Positions 1,254 through 31,545 of a stretch of 64,000 nt of DNA are shown here, piece after piece. Below the pieces are notes generated by a model. That model made no database searches. It was not told the origin of the DNA and worked only from the letters and a program-made list of their open reading frames with translations. The translations under genes were made by a program, and so were the position numbers. The stretch comes from Planctomycetota bacterium (GTDB taxonomy: Bacteria > Planctomycetota > MHYJ01 > JACQXL01), in assembly GCA_043801445.1 (NCBI GenBank), contig JAZDMB010000012.1:714-64713 (forward strand), given 5' to 3'. Within the stretch, counting starts at the first letter, position 1. Every line of letters begins with the position of its first letter.

Positions 1254-4200
1254 ATGCCTAAAAGAAAAGACATAAATAAAGTAATGATTATCGGCGCGGG
1301 CCCGATTATTATCGGTCAAGCCGCTGAATTTGATTATTCAGGTTCGCAAGCCTGCCGTTCCTTAAGGGATGAAGGATGCTGGGTTATCCTGCTCAATTCC
1401 AACCCCGCCACCATTCAAACCGATTTGGAAATGGCTGACCGAATCTATATCGAACCTCTTACCGTTGATACCATAGAAAAGATTATTGCCGCAGAAAAAC
1501 CTGATGGAATACTTGCCGGAATGGGCGGGCAAACGGCTTTGAACCTATGCTCTGAATTATCCGAAAAAGGAATTCTCAATAAATATAATATCCAACTGTT
1601 AGGAACTTCAGTTAAAGCCATAGCACTGGCTGAAGACCGTGAACTTTTCCGTTCATTAATGAATAAACTTAATGAACCTATACCCAAGAGTTTTTCCTGC
1701 AGTAGTTTTCCTGAAGTAAAAGAAGCGGTTAATAAAATAGGGAGCCTGCCGGTCATAATCAGGCCGGCTTATACTTTAGGCGGCACCGGAAGCGGTATTG
1801 CCCATAACGATGAAGAATTATCCGAGATTGTTAATAGAGGTTTGTCTTATTCCCGTATCAGACAGGTTTTGGTAGAAGAATGCGTTTCGGGATGGGCTGA
1901 ATTTGAATATGAAGTAATGCGTGATAGTGCTGATAATTGCGTCATTATCTGCAATATGGAAAATCTTGACCCGATGGGAATACATACCGGTGAAAGCATC
2001 GTGATTGCGCCGGCGCAGACCTTAAATGACCCTGAACACCAGAAACTACGCAATGCAAGTTTGAAAATCATTCGGGCGCTCGGCATAGAAGGCGGTTGCA
2101 ATATCCAGTTCGCCCTGAATCGTGCAACCGGTGATTATCGGATAATTGAGGTCAACCCACGTGTCTCCCGTTCTTCAGCACTTGCCTCTAAAGCCACCGG
2201 ATATCCTATTGCCAAAGTCTCTGCCAAGATAGCCATCGGTTTGACTCTTGATGAAATACCCAATCCGATTACCGGCAAAACATATGCCTTCTTTGAACCG
2301 GTATTGGATTATGTCGTTTTAAAAATACCTCGCTGGCCATTTGATAAATTCCGTATGGCTGATAAACGAATCGGTACCCAAATGAAATCCACCGGTGAAG
2401 TAATGGCTATAGGCAGGAATATCGAAGAATCTTTATTCAAAGCGATTCGCAGCCTTGACACGCACCAGATTGCATTTGAGCCGCCCCAGAACAGTTCACC
2501 TGCAGGCATAGTCAGCGAATTGGTTGAACCATCTGATATGCGACTCTATGCCATTGCCGAGGCATTCTGGCAGGGTTACCACCTCACCACCATCGCTGAC
2601 CTGACCAAGTGGAACCCGTTCTTCCTGCAGAAGATAAAGAATATCATGGACTTGGAAAGAAATATCCGCAAGTATTCATTGGAGACTATTGATAAAGAGA
2701 CGCTGATTAAAGCCAAGCAGATGGGATTCTCAGATGAATACCTCGCCCATATCCTATCGGAAGAGACTTATTCAGGACAACCCTGCGCCAAAGACAGACC
2801 CCGACAGAATTCGTCGGGACAAAATGATCCGTTGGGTCAGACACCTGCTGAAAAAGTCAGGCAAAAAGTTCAAGAATGCGGTATCAAAGTAGACTACAAG
2901 ATGGTAGATACCTGCGCCGCTGAATTTGAGGCAAAAACACCGTATTACTATTCCACTTATACCACCGGGACGGCTAAATCCGAACTCCGAACTCCAAACT
3001 CCCTGTCTCGCCAGCAGGCGGGCGCACTCGGCAAAGTCCTTGTCATCGGCTCAGGCCCGATTCGTATCGGTCAGGGCATAGAATTTGATTATGCCAGTGT
3101 TCAGGGAGCTATGGCGATTCGGCAACACGGATTTGAAGCAATTATGGTCAATAACAACCCAGAGACCGTCTCAACTGATTACGATATCTCTGACCGACTC
3201 TATTTTGAGCCAATCACCTTTGAGGATGTGATGAATATAATTGAAGCGGAAAACCCGGACGGAATAATAATCCAGTTCGGAGGCCAGACCGCAATCAATC
3301 TGGCTATTCCACTGCAAAAGGCGATTGCCAGGAACAAGAATCTCAAGACCAAATTCCTCGGGACACAACCAGAATTCGTGGATATGGCATCTGACCGCGA
3401 GAAGTTTGACGCACTCCTTTCACGGCTTAATATCAAACGTCCGCAGGGCAGCACCGGATTCTCCTTCGAAGAAGTCAGGGAAAAATCAGCCCGAATCGGC
3501 TATCCGGTTTTGGTGCGTCCCAGTTATGTCCTCGGCGGTAAGGGTATGGAAATCGTCCATAATGAAAAAGAGTTGGAATTCTATATCACATCCGCTATCA
3601 AAGTCTCCAACGAACATCCTGTGCTCGTGGACAAATATCTCAATAACGCCATTGAAATAGACGTTGATGCCGTTTCTGACGGCAAATCGGTATTCATTGC
3701 CGGCATTATGGAGCATATCGAAGAAGCCGGAGTTCATTCAGGCGATGCCATCTGTGTTATACCTCCGCAAACACTCTCGAAAAATATCATGAAAGAGATA
3801 AGACGGGTTACCAGAGAAATAACATTGGCGCTGAATTGCATCGGCCTGATTAATATCCAGCTTGCTGTCAAGGATGACGAGGTTTATATCATTGAAGCCA
3901 ATCCCCGGGCCAGCCGCACAGTCCCTTATGTTTCGAAAAGTATCGGGATACCGATTGCCAAGATTGCCACCGCCTTGATGCTCTCGCCCCTGATGAAAAA
4001 ACCGGTTAGTCTTTCTGATTTCGGACTACCGGCATTAGACAAAGAACCTGATATTTCTCATATCTCTATCAAGGCGCCTGTCTTCCCTTTCCAGAAATTA
4101 GTCGGTGTCGACCCGATTTTAGGACCCGAGATGAAATCCACCGGTGAAGTAATGGGAATTGCCGATACCTTTGCCGAAGCATATTATAAAGCGGCTCTGG

Positions 4201-4751
4201 CTTCAGGCAATACATTGCCTATAGAAGGAAGTGTCTATATTACGGTGCGTAATGAAGACAAAGATAATATTATTCCAATTGCCCGTAAATTAATTGAAAG
4301 CGGCTTGACAATCAGAGCAACTGCAGGCACAGCCAAGTATCTTTCAATTAATCAGATTCCGGTTGAAACTATTTACCGTATCTCGGAAAGACAATCACCC
4401 AATGCCCTGAGTCTGATGCGTGAAGGTAAAATACGATTAATAATTAACACCCCGACCGAAGGCTCAGGTCCGCGCCGGGATGGCTATCGGATGAGACGGT
4501 TAGCCATTGAATTAGGCATACCATTTATCAGCAACATTGCAGCTGCCCGCGCCGCCGTATCGGCTATCAAACTTATTAAATCGCAGAAAAATAAAACCCT
4601 GTCTGTCAAGGCATTGAATGATTACTTCCCCGCCGGAGGCGGGTCTGCCTCCCCGGCCTCGCCGAGGCGAAGCCGAGGGCGGGCAGGCACAGGTCCCGAT
4701 GGGCTATCCAAGAGGCGACAACGGGATCCCGACAGACTTTGTCGGGAGTAG
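1254..4751 (+). CDS. carB: carbamoyl-phosphate synthase large subunit, with GC-rich in-frame insertions and a GC-rich C-terminal tail
   Basis: Two ATP-grasp halves (GAGPIIIGQAAEFDYSG..., GSGPIRIGQGIEFDY...), NPRVSRSSALASKATG and NPRASRTVPYVSK motifs, and an MGS-like C-terminal domain. About 90 aa longer than typical CarB because of the insertions at ~2763-2845 and ~2965-3030 and the tail from ~4626. Confidence 0.97.
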   Translation: MPKRKDINKVMIIGAGPIIIGQAAEFDYSGSQACRSLRDEGCWVILLNSNPATIQTDLEMADRIYIEPLTVDTIEKIIAAEKPDGILAGMGGQTALNLCSELSEKGILNKYNIQLLGTSVKAIALAEDRELFRSLMNKLNEPIPKSFSCSSFPEVKEAVNKIGSLPVIIRPAYTLGGTGSGIAHNDEELSEIVNRGLSYSRIRQVLVEECVSGWAEFEYEVMRDSADNCVIICNMENLDPMGIHTGESIVIAPAQTLNDPEHQKLRNASLKIIRALGIEGGCNIQFALNRATGDYRIIEVNPRVSRSSALASKATGYPIAKVSAKIAIGLTLDEIPNPITGKTYAFFEPVLDYVVLKIPRWPFDKFRMADKRIGTQMKSTGEVMAIGRNIEESLFKAIRSLDTHQIAFEPPQNSSPAGIVSELVEPSDMRLYAIAEAFWQGYHLTTIADLTKWNPFFLQKIKNIMDLERNIRKYSLETIDKETLIKAKQMGFSDEYLAHILSEETYSGQPCAKDRPRQNSSGQNDPLGQTPAEKVRQKVQECGIKVDYKMVDTCAAEFEAKTPYYYSTYTTGTAKSELRTPNSLSRQQAGALGKVLVIGSGPIRIGQGIEFDYASVQGAMAIRQHGFEAIMVNNNPETVSTDYDISDRLYFEPITFEDVMNIIEAENPDGIIIQFGGQTAINLAIPLQKAIARNKNLKTKFLGTQPEFVDMASDREKFDALLSRLNIKRPQGSTGFSFEEVREKSARIGYPVLVRPSYVLGGKGMEIVHNEKELEFYITSAIKVSNEHPVLVDKYLNNAIEIDVDAVSDGKSVFIAGIMEHIEEAGVHSGDAICVIPPQTLSKNIMKEIRRVTREITLALNCIGLINIQLAVKDDEVYIIEANPRASRTVPYVSKSIGIPIAKIATALMLSPLMKKPVSLSDFGLPALDKEPDISHISIKAPVFPFQKLVGVDPILGPEMKSTGEVMGIADTFAEAYYKAALASGNTLPIEGSVYITVRNEDKDNIIPIARKLIESGLTIRATAGTAKYLSINQIPVETIYRISERQSPNALSLMREGKIRLIINTPTEGSGPRRDGYRMRRLAIELGIPFISNIAAARAAVSAIKLIKSQKNKTLSVKALNDYFPAGGGSASPASPRRSRGRAGTGPDGLSKRRQRDPDRLCRE

Positions 4752-4772
4752 CAAGAAAAAGACTGCATCCGA
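4626..4772 (+). repeat. GC-rich ~62-bp element (expanded by nested insertions) forming the carB 3' tail
   Basis: CTTCCCCGCCGGAGGCGGGTCTGCCT...GGCACAGG...AGCAAGAAAAAGACTGCATCCGAC. The ends match the compact copy at 30212-30273. Confidence 0.8.
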
Positions 4773-12782: not shown

Positions 12783-14948
12783 ATGATTAACATACTGAAA
12801 GGTATCAGCGGATTTATTATAATAGCCATCGTGATAGCATTGGGGTTCGGTATTGTCCGGGCAGTTCCGGTCGGTAAGGAAACGCCAAAGCAGGAGAAAG
12901 CTACACCGGTACAGAGCGAGACCAAAGAAAAAACACCTGCCCGACTGGACACCCAGTCAGGCGGGAAAGAGGAACAAACTCCCCGCGAAAAGGAAATATG
13001 GATTTATAAACTGATTCATAAACTGGAGACTTCGCAAGACCTGTGGGTCAAAGTGGAGGCGGTAAAAAAACTGGGCGAGTTAAAAGACCCCAAGGTAATC
13101 ACGGCACTTGCCAGAGCGCTCAATGACGAAAGTGTTGATATCTGTGTGGAAGCGCTGCGCGCCCTAAAGAAAATAGGCGATGCCGAATCGCTCAAACTAC
13201 TTATGACCGGCACCGTCATCTACGATATGCAGTCACTCCGTTTCTATGCCCTTGAAGCAGCCCTGGCTATCGACCCGGTAAAAACCCGGGAATTCCTTAA
13301 AGCCAATTTCAAAAGCGTATTTCCTAATGTCCGCAATAATGCCGCTGAATCACTGGCGAATCTGGTCACTCTCACCAATAAAAGAGACAAGGAATCTATC
13401 GAACAATTAGTGAGTCTTTTAAGCCATGAACCGAATAAAGACAATCGTGAAAAAATAGCAGAATCACTAAATCTCATTACTCAGGCTGAACTGACCTCTG
13501 CAGAACCCAAAGACTGGCAGGAGTGGTGGCACAAGAATAAAAAAACCATGAGCGAAAATATAAAAACCAAAGAAGTGATTACAGGGACGGAAAAACCGGA
13601 AACAAAACCGAGCCCTGAAAAAAAAGCCAAAGCCATTAAACAGAAAAAAGCGCAGGATGAATTTGATGCGTTCAAAGACAAGACAATCCTGGACAGAAAT
13701 CCCGACGACCCGACCAAATCCTATTTCGCAGGCCGTTCTGAGGAAGGTAAAACGCTCTCAGTAGCCGCATTTGCCAACGGTGACAGCCGCGTCCTGAAAC
13801 TGGTGGAAGACGCCCTTAACTGGCTGCAGCGTCACCAGGAAAAAGAAGGATTCTGGGACTATAACGGCTATGTTAAACACTGCCATTCCAGTCCGCCAGG
13901 GGCAGATATATCTCCGGCACAGGGTAACCCGCCGGAGGTGGGTCTGCCTCAGGCACAGGGCAGCAAGGAAAAAACTGCATCCGACAAGAAGAAGACTGCA
14001 TCCGATAAAACAGACGATACCACCGAGATTAAAGGTGATTATGACGTAGCCGTAACAGGCTTGGCATTACTGGCATTCCTCGGAGCCGGACATACTCATA
14101 TGCCGGGCCAGAAAGTCGGATTACCGGCCGGCGGAAAATATAAACCTACTGTAGAACGCGGACTGCACTGGCTGGTTTCCAATCAGAACGGCGACGGCAG
14201 TTTCCGCAATCCAGTCACAGGCGGTGTCGGCAACAAGGTCAATATGTTTGAACAGGCGATGGCAACACTGGCGATATCCGAGGCATACGGCATGACCGGC
14301 GACGAAACGCTGAAAGTCCCGGCGCAGAAGGCGATGAGCTTTATCAATTATGCCAAGAACCCGGGCAAGGGCTGGCGTTATACGCCTAATTGCAGCGATA
14401 ACGATACCTCTGTTGTCGGCTGGCAGGTCTTTGCACTGAAATCAGGCAAGGTTTCAGGTCTGGACATAAACCGCAACGATTTCGTTGACGCATCCAAATG
14501 GCTGGATGATATGACTAATTTAGAAACTGCCCGGGTCGGTTATAACAAAAAAGGAACCGGCTCTACTGCCATTACTTCTATCGGCATTATCTGCAAGATG
14601 CTTCTGGGCTGGCGTAATGATTCGCCCATTTTACAAAAGGGAGCGGAAATCGTCCTTAAGGATGACTCTTACCAGGGCGAGACACAGGATTTCTATCATA
14701 TCTACCAGACCTCTCTGGCGATGTTCCAGATGGGCGGACGCTACTGGGAAAACTGGAATAGCCAGATGACAAATTTCCTGGGTAATGCAGCCGTCAAAGA
14801 AGGCTGTGAACACGGCAGTTGGTCTGCCCGGATTGAGAAATGGTCTAAAAGCAGGGTTTACACCACAGCACTTGGCGCACTGTCGCTGGAAATCTATTAC
14901 CGATACCTGCCATTTGCCAGAACTGAAAAGTCAGAACAGCCGATGTAG
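12783..14948 (+). CDS. membrane-anchored HEAT-repeat / prenyltransferase-squalene-oxidase-repeat protein
   Basis: N-terminal TM helix. HEAT-like units follow (KVEAVKKLGELKDPKVITALARALNDESVDICVEALRALKKIG). The C-terminal half has terpenoid-cyclase-type repeats (QNGDGSF, GKGWRY, EHGSWS, LGALSLEIYYRY). SD AAAAGGAG. Contains two in-frame GC-rich elements. Confidence 0.85.
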   Translation: MINILKGISGFIIIAIVIALGFGIVRAVPVGKETPKQEKATPVQSETKEKTPARLDTQSGGKEEQTPREKEIWIYKLIHKLETSQDLWVKVEAVKKLGELKDPKVITALARALNDESVDICVEALRALKKIGDAESLKLLMTGTVIYDMQSLRFYALEAALAIDPVKTREFLKANFKSVFPNVRNNAAESLANLVTLTNKRDKESIEQLVSLLSHEPNKDNREKIAESLNLITQAELTSAEPKDWQEWWHKNKKTMSENIKTKEVITGTEKPETKPSPEKKAKAIKQKKAQDEFDAFKDKTILDRNPDDPTKSYFAGRSEEGKTLSVAAFANGDSRVLKLVEDALNWLQRHQEKEGFWDYNGYVKHCHSSPPGADISPAQGNPPEVGLPQAQGSKEKTASDKKKTASDKTDDTTEIKGDYDVAVTGLALLAFLGAGHTHMPGQKVGLPAGGKYKPTVERGLHWLVSNQNGDGSFRNPVTGGVGNKVNMFEQAMATLAISEAYGMTGDETLKVPAQKAMSFINYAKNPGKGWRYTPNCSDNDTSVVGWQVFALKSGKVSGLDINRNDFVDASKWLDDMTNLETARVGYNKKGTGSTAITSIGIICKMLLGWRNDSPILQKGAEIVLKDDSYQGETQDFYHIYQTSLAMFQMGGRYWENWNSQMTNFLGNAAVKEGCEHGSWSARIEKWSKSRVYTTALGALSLEIYYRYLPFARTEKSEQPM
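13927..14006 (+). repeat. GC-rich ~62-bp element, in frame inside CDS 12783-14948
   Basis: ACCCGCCGGAGGTGGGTCTGCCTCAGGCACAGGGCAGCAAGGAAAAAACTGCATCCGACAAGAAGAAGACTGCATCCGATA, translated as NPPEVGLPQAQGSKEKTASDKKKTASD. Confidence 0.8.
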
Positions 14949-14996
14949 CTGTTATATACCAGCAGGCTTTCTCTGTGTACTCTGTGTCTCTGTGGC

Positions 14997-26339: not shown

Positions 26340-26397
26340 ATGAATAATTCGTATAGCATATCTTATGGATACTCGCCATTATTTTATAATAATTAAT

Positions 26398-26464
26398 CGT
26401 ATGGAATTTCAAAGTATAGCCACCAAGGCACGAAGGCACAAAGAATTCTTAGTGTCTTTGTGGC
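26398..26464 (+). repeat. ~60-bp repeat with CACAAAG-word hairpin, copy 2 (upstream of radC)
   Basis: CGTATGGAATTTCAAAGTATAGCCACCAAGGCACGAAGGCACAAAGAATTCTTAGTGTCTTTGTGGC. Same orientation as copy 1. Confidence 0.85.
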
Positions 26465-26533
26465 GAATTATTATAATTTAATTTTATAAACAATGACTAA
26501 AGAGTATTAAATCACCTGCCGATAAACTAAAGC

Positions 26534-27271
26534 ATGAAAACATTAGATTTCTTATTAACACTTGCTACATTTATCACCTTTGTAATAGCCGTATATATAT
26601 TTTCCACTGACCCAACAATTACTAAATCAATTAACTGGGCAGAAGACAGAGTTCCCCAAAACGAAGCGCTGATTAAATCGCAAACCCAAAATATTACTTC
26701 GACGGTCACCACATCACCCAATGCATTATTGAAACAGGGAAACTCTTCTCTTCCGCCAAAGGCGGATCTGCCGAAGGCACAGGGAAGCAAGGAAAAGACT
26801 GCATCCGACAATAAAGATTATCCACCTAATCCTGCATGGAAGTATATTGTTATTCACCATAGCGCCACTAAACAAGGAAATGCCCGTATCTTTGATAATT
26901 ATCATCGTAAAGAAAAAGGTATGAAAGAAGGTTTGGCTTATCATTTTGTAATTGGTAACGGAACAAAATCTAAAGACGGCGAGATTGAGATTGGCAATAG
27001 ATGGAAAAAACAAATCGCTGGTGAGCACTGCTGGAATACCAAAATGAATCAAGAATCTATTGGTATCTGCCTGGTTGGTAATTTTGATGAATCGAAACCT
27101 ACCCCAAAACAGATAGAATCACTTATCAATCTAATAAGTAATCTACAGAAACAATATCACACACCTTCGGAAATGATTTTATCACACAAAGATGTGGATA
27201 AGAAACGAACGGACTGTCCCGGTAAATATTTTCCTGCGAAGGAAATAAAATCACGCCTTAATTCCTTTTAG
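26534..27271 (+). CDS. membrane-anchored N-acetylmuramoyl-L-alanine amidase (Amidase_2/PGRP fold)
   Basis: TM helix, a linker containing a GC-rich element, then 'IVIHHSAT......YH....G..GLAYHFVIGNG....GEIE.G.RW......H......N..SIGICLVGNF......P...Q...L..L...L......I..H.D.....TDCPG..FP'. Confidence 0.88.
   Translation: MKTLDFLLTLATFITFVIAVYIFSTDPTITKSINWAEDRVPQNEALIKSQTQNITSTVTTSPNALLKQGNSSLPPKADLPKAQGSKEKTASDNKDYPPNPAWKYIVIHHSATKQGNARIFDNYHRKEKGMKEGLAYHFVIGNGTKSKDGEIEIGNRWKKQIAGEHCWNTKMNQESIGICLVGNFDESKPTPKQIESLINLISNLQKQYHTPSEMILSHKDVDKKRTDCPGKYFPAKEIKSRLNSF
26748..26810 (+). repeat. GC-rich ~62-bp element, in frame inside the amidase CDS
   Basis: CTCTTCCGCCAAAGGCGGATCTGCCGAAGGCACAGGGAAGCAAGGAAAAGACTGCATCCGACA, translated as LPPKADLPKAQGSKEKTASD. 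Confidence 0.8.
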
Positions 27272-27587: not shown

Positions 27588-28304
27588 ATGAAATTAGGCG
27601 TAAATATAGACCATGTAGCGACAGTCCGTCAGGCACGTCGGACATTTGAGCCAGCGCCGGTGAGAGCTGCAGTTCTGGCAGAACTCGGTGGCGCTGACAG
27701 TATTGTTATTCATCTACGTGAAGACCGCCGACATATCCAGGACCAAGACCTAAAAATCATCAAAGAAGTAGTTACAACTAAACTTAATTTAGAGATGGGT
27801 TTGTCGGAGGAAATAATCCGGATTGCCCTTACAATCAAACCGCACCAGGTTACTATTGTCCCGGAGCGTCGTGAGGAACTTACCACCGAAGGCGGTTTAG
27901 ATTTGATTAAAGAACGTAAAAAAGCAGAATATGCTATCAAATTATTCAGAGATAATAACATTAATGTCTCGGTTTTTATTGACCCTGAACGTGAACAACT
28001 CCAGATTGCGAAATCAATAGGAACTCAAATTGTTGAATTACATACCGGTCTATACGCCAATGCTACTGATACAGAAACCAAACGAATTGCTTTAGATAAA
28101 CTTAATGAAGCGGCAGTAACAGCGCGAAACATGCACCTAGCAGTAGCAGCCGGACATGGGCTTAATTATATTAATGTCTCACCAATCATTAAAATTATGG
28201 AAATAGAGGAACTTAATATTGGCCATAGTATCATTGGCAGAGCTATTATGGTTGGTATAGAACGCGCGGTTAGAGAAATGAAAGAAATAATGCTCAGAAG
28301 ATAA
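27588..28304 (+). CDS. pdxJ: pyridoxine 5'-phosphate synthase
   Basis: 'LGVNIDHVATVRQAR...EP.PV.AA..AE.GGAD.I..HLREDRRHI.D.D' and 'VELHTG.YA'. Confidence 0.95.
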   Translation: MKLGVNIDHVATVRQARRTFEPAPVRAAVLAELGGADSIVIHLREDRRHIQDQDLKIIKEVVTTKLNLEMGLSEEIIRIALTIKPHQVTIVPERREELTTEGGLDLIKERKKAEYAIKLFRDNNINVSVFIDPEREQLQIAKSIGTQIVELHTGLYANATDTETKRIALDKLNEAAVTARNMHLAVAAGHGLNYINVSPIIKIMEIEELNIGHSIIGRAIMVGIERAVREMKEIMLRR

Positions 28305-28309
28305 TTTGA

Positions 28310-28740
28310 GAAACCACGAATGGACACTAATGAACACAAAATTATTTATAAGGAATTATCTTACAATATTATTGCATCAGCGCTGAAAGTGCATAATATT
28401 TTAGGCGCTGGTTTTCTGGAGAAAGTATACGAAAACGCTCTTATAATACAGTTTAAAAAAGCCGGCATAAAAGCAGAGCAGCAAGTTTCGCTAAAAGTGA
28501 ATTTTGAAGGTGAAATTGTTGGAGATTATTGTGCTGATATTGTAGTTGATAACAAAATAATATTAGAATTGAAGTGTGCTGAATCAATAAATTCTATCCA
28601 TAAGGCACAGATAATTAATTACCTGAAGGCAACCGGCATGAAACTTGGAATCATTATAAATTTTGCTAAGCCAAAATTAGAATATAAAAGAATTGTCTTG
28701 TAGTGTTTATTGGTGTTAATTTGTGTTTATTCGTGGTTTC
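28310..28740 (+). mobile_element. CACGAAT-type hairpin element carrying a GxxExxY ORF in its loop
   Basis: Perfect 12-bp terminal inverted repeat GAAACCACGAAT (28310-28321) / ATTCGTGGTTTC (28729-28740), with longer imperfect arms. The ORF occupies the loop. Mobility is inferred, not shown. Confidence 0.45.
28320..28703 (+). CDS. GxxExxY-family (PD-(D/E)XK-like) protein nested inside a CACGAAT-type hairpin element
   Basis: The literal motif GFLEKVY is present, with downstream 'D..V.....LELK' typical of the family. The start codon and first 7 codons lie inside the left arm of the inverted repeat 28310-28340 / 28704-28740. Confidence 0.85.
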   Translation: MDTNEHKIIYKELSYNIIASALKVHNILGAGFLEKVYENALIIQFKKAGIKAEQQVSLKVNFEGEIVGDYCADIVVDNKIILELKCAESINSIHKAQIINYLKATGMKLGIIINFAKPKLEYKRIVL

Positions 28741-28758
28741 AGTTAAAGGAATTATAAT

Positions 28759-29622
28759 ATGTTTAACGGTTGTATTACAGCTTTAGTAACACCATTTAAG
28801 AATGGTCAAGTAGATTATAAGAAGCTTCTGGAGTTGATTGATTTCCAGATAGAGAATGACGTCAGCGGTCTTGTCTTATGCGGAACAACTGGCGAGGGAT
28901 CGACATTAAATGATGCAGAAAAAGAAAAGATTTTCAGAATCAGTGTAAAACATAACCGTAAACGTATCTCTCTAATAGCCGGCACCGGAACTAATGATAC
29001 GGCTAAAACAATAAAACTGACTCAGATGGCTCAATCAACCGGAATGGATGCAGCTTTAGTAGTTACTCCATATTATAATAAACCAACGCAGGAAGGGTTG
29101 TATCTGCATTATCGGGCAATAAGTAACAAAGTCAGATTTCCGATAATCATCTATAATGTCCCGGGACGCACCGGCATTTCTATTACTCCTGAAACAGTGG
29201 CAAGGCTTGCGATAATAAAAAATATTGTCGCCATCAAAGACGCCAGCGGTGATTTAGACTATGTTTCCCGCCTAAGAAAACTATCAACAATAACCATTCT
29301 CTCTGGTGAGGATGCATTGACATTTCCTATGCTTTGTCTGGGCAGTAAAGGTGTCATTTCAGTTGTTTCAAACATTGCTCCAAAAGACGTGGTCAAAATG
29401 ATAGACGCATTTAATAACGGTCAATTAGAGATAGCCAAAGAATACCATTTAAAACTTTTCCCATTAATAAAGATACTGTTCATAGAATCAAATCCAATAC
29501 CAGTCAAAACCGCCTTGAAAATTATCGGTAAACTCAATGGAGAGATGCGGCTACCTCTTTGTCCAATAACGAAACAAAACGCTGACAAGTTACGCATTGT
29601 TCTTAAGGATTATAAATTATGA
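28759..29622 (+). CDS. dapA: 4-hydroxy-tetrahydrodipicolinate synthase
   Basis: 'TALVTPF..G.VD...L..LI.FQI...V.GLV.CGTTGE' and 'IYNVPGRTG'; active-site Lys context 'VAIKDASGD'. Confidence 0.95.
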
Positions 29623-30188
29623 TAAATAAAAAAAAGATTGTACAATCCATTAGATTATTTTTGGAAGGAATTGGGGAAGATCCTAATAGGAGTGGTCTTA
29701 AGGATACCCCAAACCGGATTGCCAGAATGTGCGAGGAAATCTATGCCGGACTGAATAAATCAATTTCACCAACCGAAATAATAAAACCTCTCATTTCCGA
29801 AGAACACGATGAAATAATCCTAATAAAAGACATACCATTTTATTCTATTTGCGAACATCATCTATTACCCTTTATCGGAAAGGCACACGTTGCTTATCTA
29901 CCTCAAAATGGTCGGATTAGTGGAATCAGTAAACTATCTCGAGTGGTTGATATCTTTTCCAAGATGCCTCAGGTGCAGGAAAGATTAACCGTCTCTATCG
30001 CTGAAACTATTATGAAAGCATTAAAACCCAGAGGAGTAATGGTAATCATTGAAGCAGAACATCTCTGTATGACCATGCGAGGGATAAAGAAACCCGGCTC
30101 AAGGATGACCACTTCAGTAGTACGTGGTGTTTTTAGAAATAACCCGGCTACTCGTGCAGAAACAATGAATCTAATATATAATAGTTAA
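29619..30188 (+). CDS. folE: GTP cyclohydrolase I
   Basis: 'GEDPNR.GL.DTP.R.A.M', '[18 protein letters not shown]', 'EAEHLCM.MRG'. 4-nt overlap with dapA. Confidence 0.95.
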
Positions 30189-30211: not shown

Positions 30212-30273
30212 TCTTCCCGCCAGAGGCGGGTCTGCCTATGGCACAGGAGAGCAATAAAAAGACTGCATCCGAT
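30212..30273 (+). repeat. GC-rich ~62-bp element, intergenic compact copy
   Basis: CTTCCCGCCAGAGGCGGGTCTGCCTATGGCACAGGAGAGCAATAAAAAGACTGCATCCGATA, between folE and the glycosyltransferase gene. Confidence 0.8.
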
Positions 30274-30348: not shown

Positions 30349-31545
30349 ATGCTTTACCCACAAAATCATAAAATCAAAGTAGTTCATATAATTACCCGTT
30401 TAATTTTAGGAGGAGCGCAGGAAAATACCATCCTTACGGTTGAAGGACTACAAAAACATCCGGAATATCAAGTAATACTCATTTCCGGTCCTGCCTTAGG
30501 TCCTGAAGGAGAACTCGTTAAACGGGTAACCCAAAGCGGTGTTAAACTAATTATCATCCCTGAAATGAGACGTAATATCCATCCCATTCTGGATATAATT
30601 GCATTTATAAAACTATATCTCTTGTTATTACATCTAAAACCAAATATTGTGCATACTCACAGTGCCAAAGCCGGTATACTCGGTCGTTTTACAGCATATC
30701 TTGCCGGAGTAAGAACCATTATTCATACTCTTCACGGATTATCTTTTCATCACTACCAAAATAAAATGGTCAATTATATATATATTGCTATTGAAAAGAT
30801 TGCCTCATTAGCTACTACGCATTTTATTAGCGTAGCTAATGCGATGACCGAACAATCCCTACACGTCAAAATTGGTAATCCTCAAATGTACACCACTATC
30901 TACAGTGCCTTGGAACTGAATAAATTCATACTCAAGGAATCCCAACCGGAGTCTAAGCGAAAATTGGGATTAGAAAATAACAAGGTGGTTGGAACTATTG
31001 CAAGATTAGCACCATTGAAAGGACATAATTATATACTTCAAATAGCAACTCAAATAATTCGCGAGGTTCCTGATGTAAAATTCTTATTTGTCGGCGATGG
31101 TTCTCTAAGTGATAAAATTAAGAGTGAGGTTAAAGGACGAGGACTTGAAAAACGGTTTGTTTTCACCGGTCTGGTTAAACCTGAGGAGATTCCCTTTATA
31201 ATTCAAGCATTAGATGTTCTGGTGCATCCTTCATTACGTGAAGGATTAGCACGCACTATACCACAGTCGTTTGCCTCAGGCAAACCAGTAATTTCGTTTG
31301 ACGTTGATGGAGCTAAAGAATTAGTTATCAATTCTAAAACCGGCTTTCTGATAACACCGCCTAACTCCAATAAAAAACATAATCAGAATTCCCTGGAACA
31401 ATTAGCTAATGCAATAATTTACACACTTAAAAACCCACAGATAGCTAAAAAAATGGGCGAGGCTGGAAAAAAATTAATCACCCCTAATTTTGATGCAAAT
31501 TATATGGTAAAAAGAATTATTGAAATCTATAATAAGTATTATTAA
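30349..31545 (+). CDS. GT4-family (GT-B fold) glycosyltransferase
   Basis: 'KVVHIITRLILGGAQ' N-terminal half and the C-terminal nucleotide-sugar site 'PSLREGLARTIPQSFASGKPVISFDVDGAKELV'. Confidence 0.8.
   Translation: MLYPQNHKIKVVHIITRLILGGAQENTILTVEGLQKHPEYQVILISGPALGPEGELVKRVTQSGVKLIIIPEMRRNIHPILDIIAFIKLYLLLLHLKPNIVHTHSAKAGILGRFTAYLAGVRTIIHTLHGLSFHHYQNKMVNYIYIAIEKIASLATTHFISVANAMTEQSLHVKIGNPQMYTTIYSALELNKFILKESQPESKRKLGLENNKVVGTIARLAPLKGHNYILQIATQIIREVPDVKFLFVGDGSLSDKIKSEVKGRGLEKRFVFTGLVKPEEIPFIIQALDVLVHPSLREGLARTIPQSFASGKPVISFDVDGAKELVINSKTGFLITPPNSNKKHNQNSLEQLANAIIYTLKNPQIAKKMGEAGKKLITPNFDANYMVKRIIEIYNKYY

Follow-up and report, generated by a model that had tools for sequence, protein, structure and literature searches.

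The window, a 64,000-nt stretch of a contig from an uncultured groundwater planctomycete, contains four recent plus-strand copies of a short repeat, [C/T]CCGCC...GCATCCGA, all of them at the positions given in the original prediction. The 14-mer AAGACTGCATCCGA, allowing up to 2 mismatches, occurs five times against 0.45 expected, a count attained in 0 of 100 shuffles. With a covariance model (R1) derived from 13 units, the three short copies of the window score 80-86 bits (E ~1e-17 to 1e-19), and both halves of the expanded copy are also detected. Weak minus-strand matches at 14951 and 22701 are gapped and at noise level, and were rejected. In its ORF, the amidase copy separates the N-terminal membrane anchor from the Amidase_2 domain (Pfam). 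Translation bears out the claim that this copy and the one in the HEAT/prenyltransferase-like protein are read in the same frame. The folE copy begins 28 nt past folE (29619-30188), ahead of a glycosyltransferase gene (30349-31545), and is co-directional with both.

Table 1. Repeat units and nested modules located in the window, with predicted junction peptides.
Feature	Position	Strand	Context and score
Intact unit (HEAT site)	13928-13984	+	Frame A (NPPEVGLPQAQGSKEKTASD); linker of HEAT/prenyltransferase-like ORF 12783-14948; R1 80.1 bits
Older decayed copy, left 36 nt (columns 1-36)	13892-13927	+	Split by the unit at 13928
Older decayed copy, right 21 nt (columns 37-57)	13985-14005	+	CAAGAAGAAGACTGCATCCGA
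Intact unit (amidase site)	26752-26808	+	Frame A (LPPKADLPKAQGSKEKTASD); ORF 26534-27271; R1 84.5 bits
Intact unit (folE site)	30216-30272	+	Intergenic; R1 86 bits
Expanded unit, 144 nt	4629-4772	+	carB 3' end, frame B
Nested GC-rich hairpin module, 36 nt	4650-4685	+	Takes the place of the 3-nt P2 loop
Nested two-hairpin module, 56 nt	4694-4749	+	Includes CCCGACAGACTTTGTCGGG; between GGCACAGG and AGCAAG
Diverged antisense copy	2757-2818	-	Inside carB; peptide SEETYSGQPCAKDRPRQNSSG; R1 20.7 bits, E 0.0026
Host-insert junction peptides, predicted			...SSLPPKADLPK..., ...AQGSKEKTASDNK...

The carB copy is indeed expanded, as had been noted, but rather than lying within or just after the gene it replaces the gene's end, in a different frame from the other two coding copies. 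The last 18 carB codons are swapped for 41 element-encoded codons, with the TAG stop at 4749-4751 supplied by the element; the reconstructed ancestral carB end reads ...NDYFPIPPTRIQPDKSVQTVI followed by a stop. Both modules nested in this copy were delimited by alignment, fold and word depth, a depth that for the 36-nt module exceeds the flanking depth manyfold in X5-X8, and for the 56-nt module reaches 638 versus 24 at the flank in X5.

The interval 13927-14006, originally assigned to a single copy, does hold an intact unit, but it also holds the 3' third of an older, decayed copy. When the flanks 13892-13927 and 13985-14005 are joined, they give an ungapped 56-nt alignment to the consensus with a score of 80.5, against a shuffle maximum of 36. 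On this alignment, the 13928 unit inserted into an older 57-nt copy and split it. The count of four was therefore too low: besides the split copy, there is a sixth, the diverged antisense copy inside carB, in which hairpin P1 is exchanged for CCCGAC-GAATTCT-GTCGGG. Its local alignment score is 45, compared with a mean of 17.7 (sd 3.3, maximum 31) for shuffles.

Metagenome DNA contigs from public groundwater data sets, belonging to strains 94-99% identical to the window, precisely lack each of the four recent copies. At the HEAT site, an X2 contig skips 57 nt (13927-13983 or 13928-13984, a 2-nt ambiguity). At the amidase site, the block missing from contigs of X1 (1167 nt) and X2 is exactly 26752-26808, no letters being shared, and at the folE site an X1 contig (2132 nt) skips exactly 30216-30272, again with no shared letters, while the X2 contig retains the unit. 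The X5 contig at carB (1773 nt) runs from 4630 straight into the sequence after 4774, giving an exact empty site. These sites set the unit length at exactly 57 nt (19 codons), not the ~62 bp first proposed, the extra 4 nt on the left (CTTC/CTCT) being flank. There is no target-site duplication: two loci have empty sites with 0 shared letters, and the other two leave 2 letters ambiguous. These comparisons show that the unit is gained or lost precisely, as a single block. The exact absence from close strains indicates that the four copies are recent insertions and not ancestral sequence, and the expectation of a small element inserting into coding DNA thus holds, with 57 nt missing elsewhere, or 144 nt at carB.

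The strains form a patchwork, in which X1 has the HEAT copy and lacks the amidase and folE copies, and X2 shows the opposite for HEAT and folE. Gain versus precise loss is a direction that cannot be assigned to each of these strain differences. The ortholog comparison, which had been put forward as the refuting test, gave the same answer as the strain contigs: solved TsaD and iPGM homologues (PDB) align up to the insert and resume directly after it. Pfam domain matches are interrupted or lengthened where the inserts lie.

Fourteen further copies were found in two other Planctomycetota MAGs (JAGUXD01 and JAZDFP01) and two freshwater metagenomes. The census drew on the window, one genome-contig scan, one metagenome-contig scan and Logan contigs, and surveyed 20 copies at 19 distinct sites (L005 and L023a are one site). 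Matches score 74-89 bits with R1. The new hosts include nadC, rdgB, nadE, tsaD, gpmI and the gene of an M54 peptidase; the last carries two copies in direct orientation, ~130 nt apart. Overall, the host proteins (a HEAT protein, Amidase_2, CarB, NadC, RdgB, NadE, an M19 peptidase, TsaD, iPGM, a DUF2851 protein and an M54 peptidase, among others) comprise cytoplasmic enzymes as well as exported proteins and have no function in common. All copies are single units, with inverted doublets absent. Four are expanded (66, 102, 108 and 144 nt), with modules in the P2 loop and before AGCAAG. Among the metagenome pattern matches, 21 of 29 were chance hits in conserved marine or gut genes, without the upstream hairpins, and L013, L028 and L030 were also discarded. 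A scan of viral contigs for the 5' half of the unit gave 0 matches. A protein homologue search with the 43 residues around the insert, using an index blind to the 19-residue shared segment, returned the query alone (4 candidates).

The 13 full units (from the window, the two MAGs and the two metagenomes) are all exactly 57 nt long, with 92% identity per column and the consensus 5'-[C/T]CCGCC-NNN-GGCGG[G/A]-TC-TGCC-NNN-GGCA-CAGGGN-AGCAAGAAAAAGACTGCATCCGA-3'. Fold and pairing analysis shows three small hairpins, of which P1 (bases 1-15) abuts the left end of the unit and P3 spans bases 31-55; P1 and P3 are mutually unlike, and the 23-nt 3' tail is conserved and non-palindromic. Stem cells are paired in 99% of cases, compared with 27-41% for slid controls. 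Columns 1 and 15 covary, being C-G in 7 sequences and T-A in 5. This is the one covarying pair, and it partly tracks subfamilies. No terminal inverted repeats are present, as CCCGCCAGAGG at the 5' end shows no complementarity to GACTGCATCCGA at the 3' end. A GTAG tag occurs solely where column 34 is T (5 of 13 units), and CGTC is absent. We do not claim the open reading frames of the unit as a designed feature, because 57 nt at ~60% GC are mostly open by chance; most units have one or two stops among the six frames.

Copies within genes are mostly sense (14:2 sense to antisense). The 14 sense copies use frame A in 7 cases, B in 5 and C in 2, which does not differ from equal use (chi-square ~2.7, p ~0.26). 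The two antisense copies, in iPGM and carB, are also in frame, and two copies are clearly intergenic (w30216 and L003a). The suggestion that one frame is tolerated or selected does not survive these counts. All frame-B copies are without the T34 and T40 variants, which would create stops. Open frames alone predict a sense share of ~0.52, giving a one-sided p of ~0.004 for 14:2. The sense bias thus exceeds what stop codons alone would produce and could point to an RNA- or transcription-linked step. The intergenic copies are co-directional with neighbouring genes. Several copies come after signal peptides or lipobox cysteines.

A metatranscriptome contig crosses from a gene 25 nt into a unit and another RNA contig carries a unit, both being assembled contigs at very low coverage with DNA carry-over possible. 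The contig over the 5' junction indicates that transcripts include the unit and that it stays in place at that junction. Splicing or intron-like removal was rejected on the same evidence, with no RNA joint seen at any unit. In the further RNA runs checked, the locus was found in X3 alone.

Insertions show a loose target bias. Of 17 independent sites, 12 have C at -4 and 12 have A at +2, and 11 of 16 have A at +3. Positions -3 to -1 are variable, and C at -4 is the only left-side enrichment, with no fixed tetra- or pentanucleotide before the insertions.

Activity of the element is current or very recent, in a population of Brocadiia-group Planctomycetota from groundwater and sediment. On balance, we think it probable that the unit is a non-autonomous mobile 57-nt DNA element moved in trans, whose insertions are filtered by selection for in-frame tolerance. 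An enzyme encoded by the host or by an element would act in trans on one strand folded into hairpins and so mobilise the unit. The likeliest type would be an HUH/Y1 single-strand transposase, IS200/IS605- or RAYT-like, or a functional equivalent, with a loose target preference for C at -4 and A at +2 and +3. Selection would then filter the insertions. Copies within genes may survive because 57 is divisible by three, stops are largely missing from the sense frames and the peptides are hydrophilic and disordered; such copies are located in linkers, surface loops and C-terminal tails. The unit may also be a favoured landing site for smaller hairpin modules and for more copies of itself. A scan of 44 window ORFs, which make up nearly the whole window, found no transposase domain, and this absence fits mobilisation in trans. 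Against this explanation, a mobilising enzyme was not found among the window ORFs, the geometry is unlike that of IS608, and the REP tags GTAG/CGTC are absent as conserved features.

There is some room for two other accounts of movement, each of which we consider unlikely. The unit may be mobile by another route, either captured at DNA breaks or nicks in the form of a discrete, short nucleic acid whose ends are fixed (an msDNA-like product, an excised single-strand circle or a small RNA after reverse transcription), or moved by an unrecognised nuclease, for which the PD-(D/E)XK GxxExxY cassettes abundant in this genome are candidates; orientation would then track transcription or RNA templating. 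Exact ends lacking terminal inverted repeats, a target-site duplication or a strict target word are consistent with such a route, as are the sense bias and the absence of a Y1 transposase domain from the scanned ORFs, and a PDDEXK_3 cassette in the window is polymorphic between strains. However, no reverse transcriptase or retron was seen, poly-A and other retro-signatures are absent, C at -4 suggests sequence-guided cleavage and not random breaks, and no link between the nuclease cassettes and the unit was found.

The second account, for which we would likewise claim only a small chance, is that the unit belongs to an undescribed class of coding-sequence-adapted mobile DNA, which would insert in a strand-specific, transcription-coupled manner using machinery unrelated to known transposases. 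A folded single strand would enter the exposed non-template strand, or an RNA-templated step would be involved, and the unit would be one layer in a hierarchy of nested micro-elements in Brocadiia-group Planctomycetota. Transcription coupling would explain the 14:2 bias, the co-directional intergenic copies and the absent terminal inverted repeats, target-site duplications and fixed target word.

We judge it improbable to a greater degree that the unit is a structured RNA module acting in mRNAs (for instance by stabilising them, by serving as a processing site or by binding a protein or sRNA) and for that reason retained in the sense orientation, with mobility secondary. The three well-paired hairpins with their covarying pair, four G-U wobbles on the plus strand, the orientation of genic and intergenic copies and the two RNA contigs are in its favour. 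However, the wobbles compare with 2 mismatches that would wobble on the minus strand, an asymmetry that is not significant and was dropped as an RNA signal, and the short copies fold no better than shuffles (z -0.2 to -1.5). Rfam 15 gave 0 matches over the window at gathering score; the lone weak one at permissive thresholds, STnc490, is sub-threshold (30 bits versus a threshold of 56), covers no more than two GC hairpins, lies opposite to the strand of copy 1 and was discarded. Strains that are 97-99% identical can dispense with copies, the host genes share no function, and antisense copies persist in iPGM and carB.

It is very unlikely that the shared peptide LPxAQGSxKKTASD is itself selected, as a functional linker, sorting or cleavage motif delivered by the element. 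Frame A is the commonest, and the copies behind signal peptides or lipobox cysteines would suit such a role. However, enzymes that are just as conserved carry unrelated peptides from frames B and C and from an antisense frame, frame use is statistically even, intergenic copies exist and the hosts are cytoplasmic as well as exported. The peptide would more simply be a by-product of frame A than a selected module. An ancestral segment, lost from some strains by precise deletion without ongoing mobility, is scarcely credible: no DNA-level outgroup polarises each difference, but the same block sits in unrelated genes, frames and genomes, deletions would have to end exactly where the unit ends at four sites, on 0-2 nt of microhomology, distant homologues with solved structures lack the inserts, and one unit interrupts an older one.

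REPs carry GTAG/CGTC tags (PMC3733652) and are mobilised by RAYT Y1 transposases (PMC3116915); some lie inside genes, and they have been reported in Planctomycetes (PMC3116915, PMC3733652). Like REPs and REPINs, the unit is a short GC-rich hairpin repeat with G-T pairs in its stems, presumably mobilised in trans by a single-strand-specific HUH enzyme. Unlike them, it has no conserved tag, since column 34 is variable; its copies are singlets in one orientation and not inverted doublets, it has three different hairpins and the non-palindromic tail, and no RAYT was found among the 44 window ORFs. The unit shares with IS200/IS605 elements the absence of terminal inverted repeats and target-site duplications, precise excision and insertion, hairpins near the ends and strand-asymmetric sequence (PMC7290912, PMC3201880, PMC6006769). 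IS608-type elements target the position 3' of a fixed tetra- or pentanucleotide and are cleaved at a distance from end hairpins that resemble each other (PMC7290912, PMC3201880, PMC6006769), whereas the unit shows only C at -4 on the left, and has its 5' hairpin at base 1 and dissimilar end hairpins. No tnpA was seen for it among the window ORFs. The cyanobacterial small dispersed repeats of Elhai et al. 2008 (Genome Res 18:1484) are said to be tens of nt long and to have been found by comparing close strains; they are reportedly nested in one another and sometimes intragenic, with machinery unassigned. Those repeats and the unit would be alike in very small size, mobility, nesting and discovery by strain comparison. 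The unit differs in phylum and sequence, and its 57-nt three-hairpin build and its strongly intragenic, sense-biased placement are not known features of those repeats.

MITEs have terminal inverted repeats, make short direct repeats at insertion and measure 150-400 bp (PMC5896051, PMC10969869). Coxiella QMITE1 and QMITE2 and other MITEs that form in-frame fusions, like the unit, can lengthen protein C-termini or take their place, and can contribute internal peptides (PMC5896051, PMC10969869); at 57 nt, the unit has neither terminal inverted repeats nor a target-site duplication. By analogy, the unit seems closest to the Rickettsia palindromic elements (RPEs), yet smaller and differently built. 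RPEs are ~150 bp palindromic repeats of obligate intracellular Alphaproteobacteria (Ogata et al. 2000; PMC10969869, PMC3733652), and the passages cited describe each family as encoding one conserved peptide (PMC10969869, PMC3733652). As far as those accounts go, both are dispersed hairpin-forming selfish repeats found in frame in unrelated housekeeping genes, both add a peptide where the protein fold allows, and no enzyme is assigned to either. Compared by description and not by sequence, RPEs are ~100-150 bp, whereas the unit has 57 nt and occurs in free-living Planctomycetota, and it uses three sense frames and an antisense frame in place of the one peptide per family described for RPEs. Exact empty sites in co-occurring strains, in addition, show current activity of the unit.

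To our knowledge, small selfish repeats in working genes are known mainly from Rickettsia, and their movement has never been worked out. The unit is far shorter than those repeats, has sharply defined ends, segregates among near-identical groundwater strains of a free-living phylum and is present in essential enzymes (TsaD, iPGM, NadE and CarB). Co-occurrence analysis over MAGs and an excision/insertion assay make the question of mobilisation approachable. The inserts also affect annotation and assembly: they lengthen and re-terminate predicted proteins, the C-terminus of CarB being element-encoded, they can imitate a motif common to unrelated proteins, and short-read contigs break at every copy.

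The original prediction's four copies were all found on the plus strand of the window. With at most two mismatches allowed, the 3′ word AAGACTGCATCCGA has five occurrences in the window where 0.45 would be expected, a count that 0 of 100 shuffles reached. The repeat unit is 57 nt rather than the ~62 bp first proposed, the first four bases of that estimate being flank. It has sharp ends (5′ [C/T]CCGCC, 3′ GCATCCGA) and a GC content of 54–63% vs. 35–50% for the window.

Logan contigs from public groundwater and sediment metagenomes, representing strains 94–99% identical to the window, were compared with it. The amidase copy is skipped exactly by a 1167-nt contig from run X1 and by a contig from run X2, and the copy after folE by a 2132-nt X1 contig; in both cases 57 nt are skipped and the two sides share zero letters. 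The folE copy is present in an X2 contig. At the HEAT site, 57 nt (13927–13983) are missing from an X2 contig, with a 2-nt ambiguity that makes 13928–13984 an equally good fit, and a 999-nt X1 contig retains the copy. At carB, a 1773-nt contig from run X5 (94% identical over carB) goes from 4630 directly to TATTCCACCT..., the sequence following 4774, giving an exact empty site for the expanded copy, with 2 nt ambiguity. Since these strain contigs lack the exact blocks, all four recent copies in the window are presence/absence polymorphisms. No target-site duplication was found at the four empty sites, and no terminal inverted repeats in 13 aligned full units. The unit is gained or lost as an exact block, without duplication or inverted ends.

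A nested insertion is seen at the HEAT locus. With the recent unit taken out, the locus aligns ungapped to the consensus over 56 nt (score 80.5; the best of 500 shuffles scored 36). The joined flanks thus represent an older, decayed copy, into which a unit with matching orientation and frame inserted after column 36. That split accounts for the seeming duplication of ...ACTGCATCCGA noticed in the original prediction.

Coordinates of the unit's hairpins, its copies and other segments
Feature	Position	Remark
Hairpin P1	columns 1-6 with 10-15	13-unit alignment
Hairpin P2	columns 18-21 with 25-28	13-unit alignment
Hairpin P3	columns 31-33 + 36-38 with 49-51 + 53-55	13-unit alignment
Expanded copy, carB 3′ end	4629-4772 (+)	144 nt
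Its nested modules	4650-4685, 4694-4749	word depth up to ~640 vs. 24 in flanking carB (X5)
Recent copy, HEAT/prenyltransferase-like ORF	13928-13984 (+)	
Older decayed copy, HEAT locus	13892-13927 + 13985-14005	57 nt
Recent copy, Amidase_2 ORF	26752-26808 (+)	
Recent copy, after folE	30216-30272 (+)	
carB extra segment	2757-2845	GC-rich; diverged antisense unit copy
Second carB extra segment	~2940-3030	GC-rich; peptide TGTAKSELRTPNSLSRQQAGALG
carB exchanged segment	3996-4058	63 nt exchanged for 90 other letters in X1 contig
carB raised-depth segment	4125-4160	loose ends both sides
Hairpin element upstream of amidase gene	26389-26472	84 nt; CACGAA/GCCACAAAG words
Cassette between pdxJ and dapA	28289-28757	469 nt
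Cassette ORF	28320-28703	127 aa; Pfam PDDEXK_3, E 6e-41
Unit between tRNA gene and nadE	L003 2300-2436	
Double hairpin near tsaD 3′ end	L011 3823-3861 (+)	CCCGCCAGAGGCGGG then TCCGCCTTTGGCGGA
Module GAGAACCCGTCAGGGTTCGTGGAG inside unit, M54 peptidase gene	L027 1686-1790 (-)	
Module GAGAACCCGTCAGGGTTCGTGGAG immediately after unit, 3′ of Wzz/tyrosine-kinase gene	L029 1290-1316 (-)	

A gap-free alignment of the 13 full units (from the window, two MAGs and two metagenomes) has a mean column identity of 92%. Three hairpins pair in 99% of cells, vs. 27–41% in controls with the 3′ partners shifted one to three columns. Only the outermost P1 pair covaries (C-G in seven sequences, T-A in five), in part tracking subfamilies; P3 is invariant among the 13 units and thus uninformative on covariation. 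Short copies did not fold significantly better than shuffles (z –0.2 to –1.5). Rfam gave zero matches at gathering thresholds. The sole permissive hit, STnc490, was rejected: its 30 bits fall short of the threshold of 56, and the match lies on the strand opposite the expanded copy, in two GC hairpins.

Scanning genome contigs with a strand-neutral pattern yielded a single copy in a MAG of Candidatus Brocadiia and four copies in a second, unclassified MAG of the Planctomycetota. The scan of metagenome contigs gave 29 hits, of which eight are true loci, in two JGI metagenomes; the remainder are chance matches in unrelated conserved genes. Searching those loci with R1, a covariance model built from the 13 units, revealed additional copies. 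The hosts identified by Pfam are quinolinate phosphoribosyltransferase, Ham1/RdgB, NAD synthetase (in a domain linker), M19 dipeptidase, iPGM, TsaD, DUF2851, an M54 peptidase with two copies, and lipoprotein-like proteins of unknown kind, alongside the HEAT/prenyltransferase-like protein, the Amidase_2 protein and CarB of the window. Against solved structures, TsaD query residues 153 and 177 match chain residues 146 and 151; in iPGM, chain residue 474 is matched by query residues 480 and 502 alike. The alignments are interrupted exactly at the inserts, which marks these as derived and as added to loops of conserved enzymes. The tsaD gene bearing a full sense unit also has the antisense double hairpin, with P1 in common with the unit and without its tail. 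The unit directly between the tRNA gene and the nadE start codon ends 4 nt before the ATG, and would therefore belong to the nadE leader and ribosome-binding region.

Sixteen intragenic insertion sites were counted for strand and frame. Fourteen are sense and two antisense (iPGM and the diverged carB copy), a significant bias (two-sided binomial p 0.004) that persists when the sense share predicted from open frames, 0.52, is taken as the reference (one-sided p ~0.004). Selection of one frame had been proposed, and was not borne out: all three sense frames occur, A at 7/14 sites (PPxxGLPxAQGSxKKTASD), B at five (SAKGGSASGTGKQEKDCIR) and C at two (RQRRVCLRxRVARKRLHP; chi-square ~2.7), no single frame being selected. 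Every frame-B copy lacks the T34 and T40 variants, which give TAG or TAA in frame B, a signature of a selection filter. The expanded copies measure 66, 102, 108 and 144 nt, all divisible by three. Removing the units restores plausible proteins, the amidase linker becoming ...KQGNSSLNKDYPP... and the CarB end ...NDYFPIPPTRIQPDKSVQTVI followed by its stop; the window CarB ends in 41 element-encoded residues and a TAG stop provided by the element. Copies are retained only where an in-frame insertion is tolerated. Two copies are clearly intergenic, one after folE and one between the tRNA gene and nadE, and run in the direction of the neighbouring genes. Antisense peptides are more hydrophobic (e.g. 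FRMQSFSCSPVPETDPSLAG), so selection could add to the sense bias; a strand-specific insertion step could also contribute.

The locus was found in one metatranscriptome run, X3, in assembled contigs of very low coverage. A 200-nt X3 contig, identical to the window, spans 13753–13952 (gene, then 25 nt of unit), and another RNA contig bears a unit from a different locus. No joint skipping a unit occurs among the assembled RNA contigs at this very low coverage. At most, with DNA carry-over possible, the unit is transcribed and not removed at the 13928 junction.

Seventeen independent left flanks show a loose target bias, with C at –4 in 12 of 17 (binomial p ~1e-5 with background C near 0.2), and A at +2 in 12/17 and at +3 in 11/16. 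At three unrelated insertions AATCACC directly precedes the unit or lies at most 2 nt away, and no fixed tetranucleotide precedes the unit among the 17 flanks.

The unit is very probably mobile, non-autonomous DNA filtered by selection, which a single-strand-specific enzyme supplied in trans would move. A scan of 44 window ORFs revealed no transposase domain. IS200/IS605 elements employ hairpins at their ends and, like the unit, have neither inverted repeats nor duplications (PMC7290912, PMC3201880, PMC6006769), and REPs/REPINs are thought to be mobilised by RAYTs, relatives of IS200/IS605 enzymes (PMC3116915). The unit fits imperfectly: unlike IS200/IS605 elements, it has no fixed target word, its end hairpins are dissimilar and its 5′ hairpin abuts the end; unlike REPs, it has no GTAG or CGTC tag (PMC3733652). 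A HUH-type route is a tentative proposal, its main rival being mobilisation by a different, possibly new route. The unit fails the defining tests of MITEs, REPs/REPINs and strict IS200/IS605 derivatives. Rickettsia palindromic elements have the same lifestyle (PMC10969869), but the unit is far smaller; intragenic REPs (PMC3733652) and MITE-derived fusions (PMC5896051) resemble it. Full-text literature searches turned up no account of elements of this kind in Planctomycetota of the anammox group.

In expanded copies, smaller GC-rich hairpin modules occupy the P2 loop and also separate GGCACAGG from AGCAAG. In runs X5–X8 the word depth of these modules is up to ~25x that of flanking carB sequence, so they form separate, very high-copy hairpin families in these aquifer communities. 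The unit itself reaches ~24x its flank in X1, a depth ratio that does not equal copy number. One module sequence recurs both inside and next to units.

The diverged antisense carB copy has a different first hairpin (CCCGAC-GAATTCT-GTCGGG). The exchanged and raised-depth carB segments may be a further variable insert, or conserved carB sequence that also matches other organisms. An X1 contig skips the 84-nt element, whose word depth is raised in three runs; the element is apparently one more small repeat that segregates. The cassette encoding a PD-(D/E)XK nuclease is replaced by 19 other letters in a 945-nt X1 contig (11 differences/926 aligned nt); this close strain shows that the cassette is polymorphic too.
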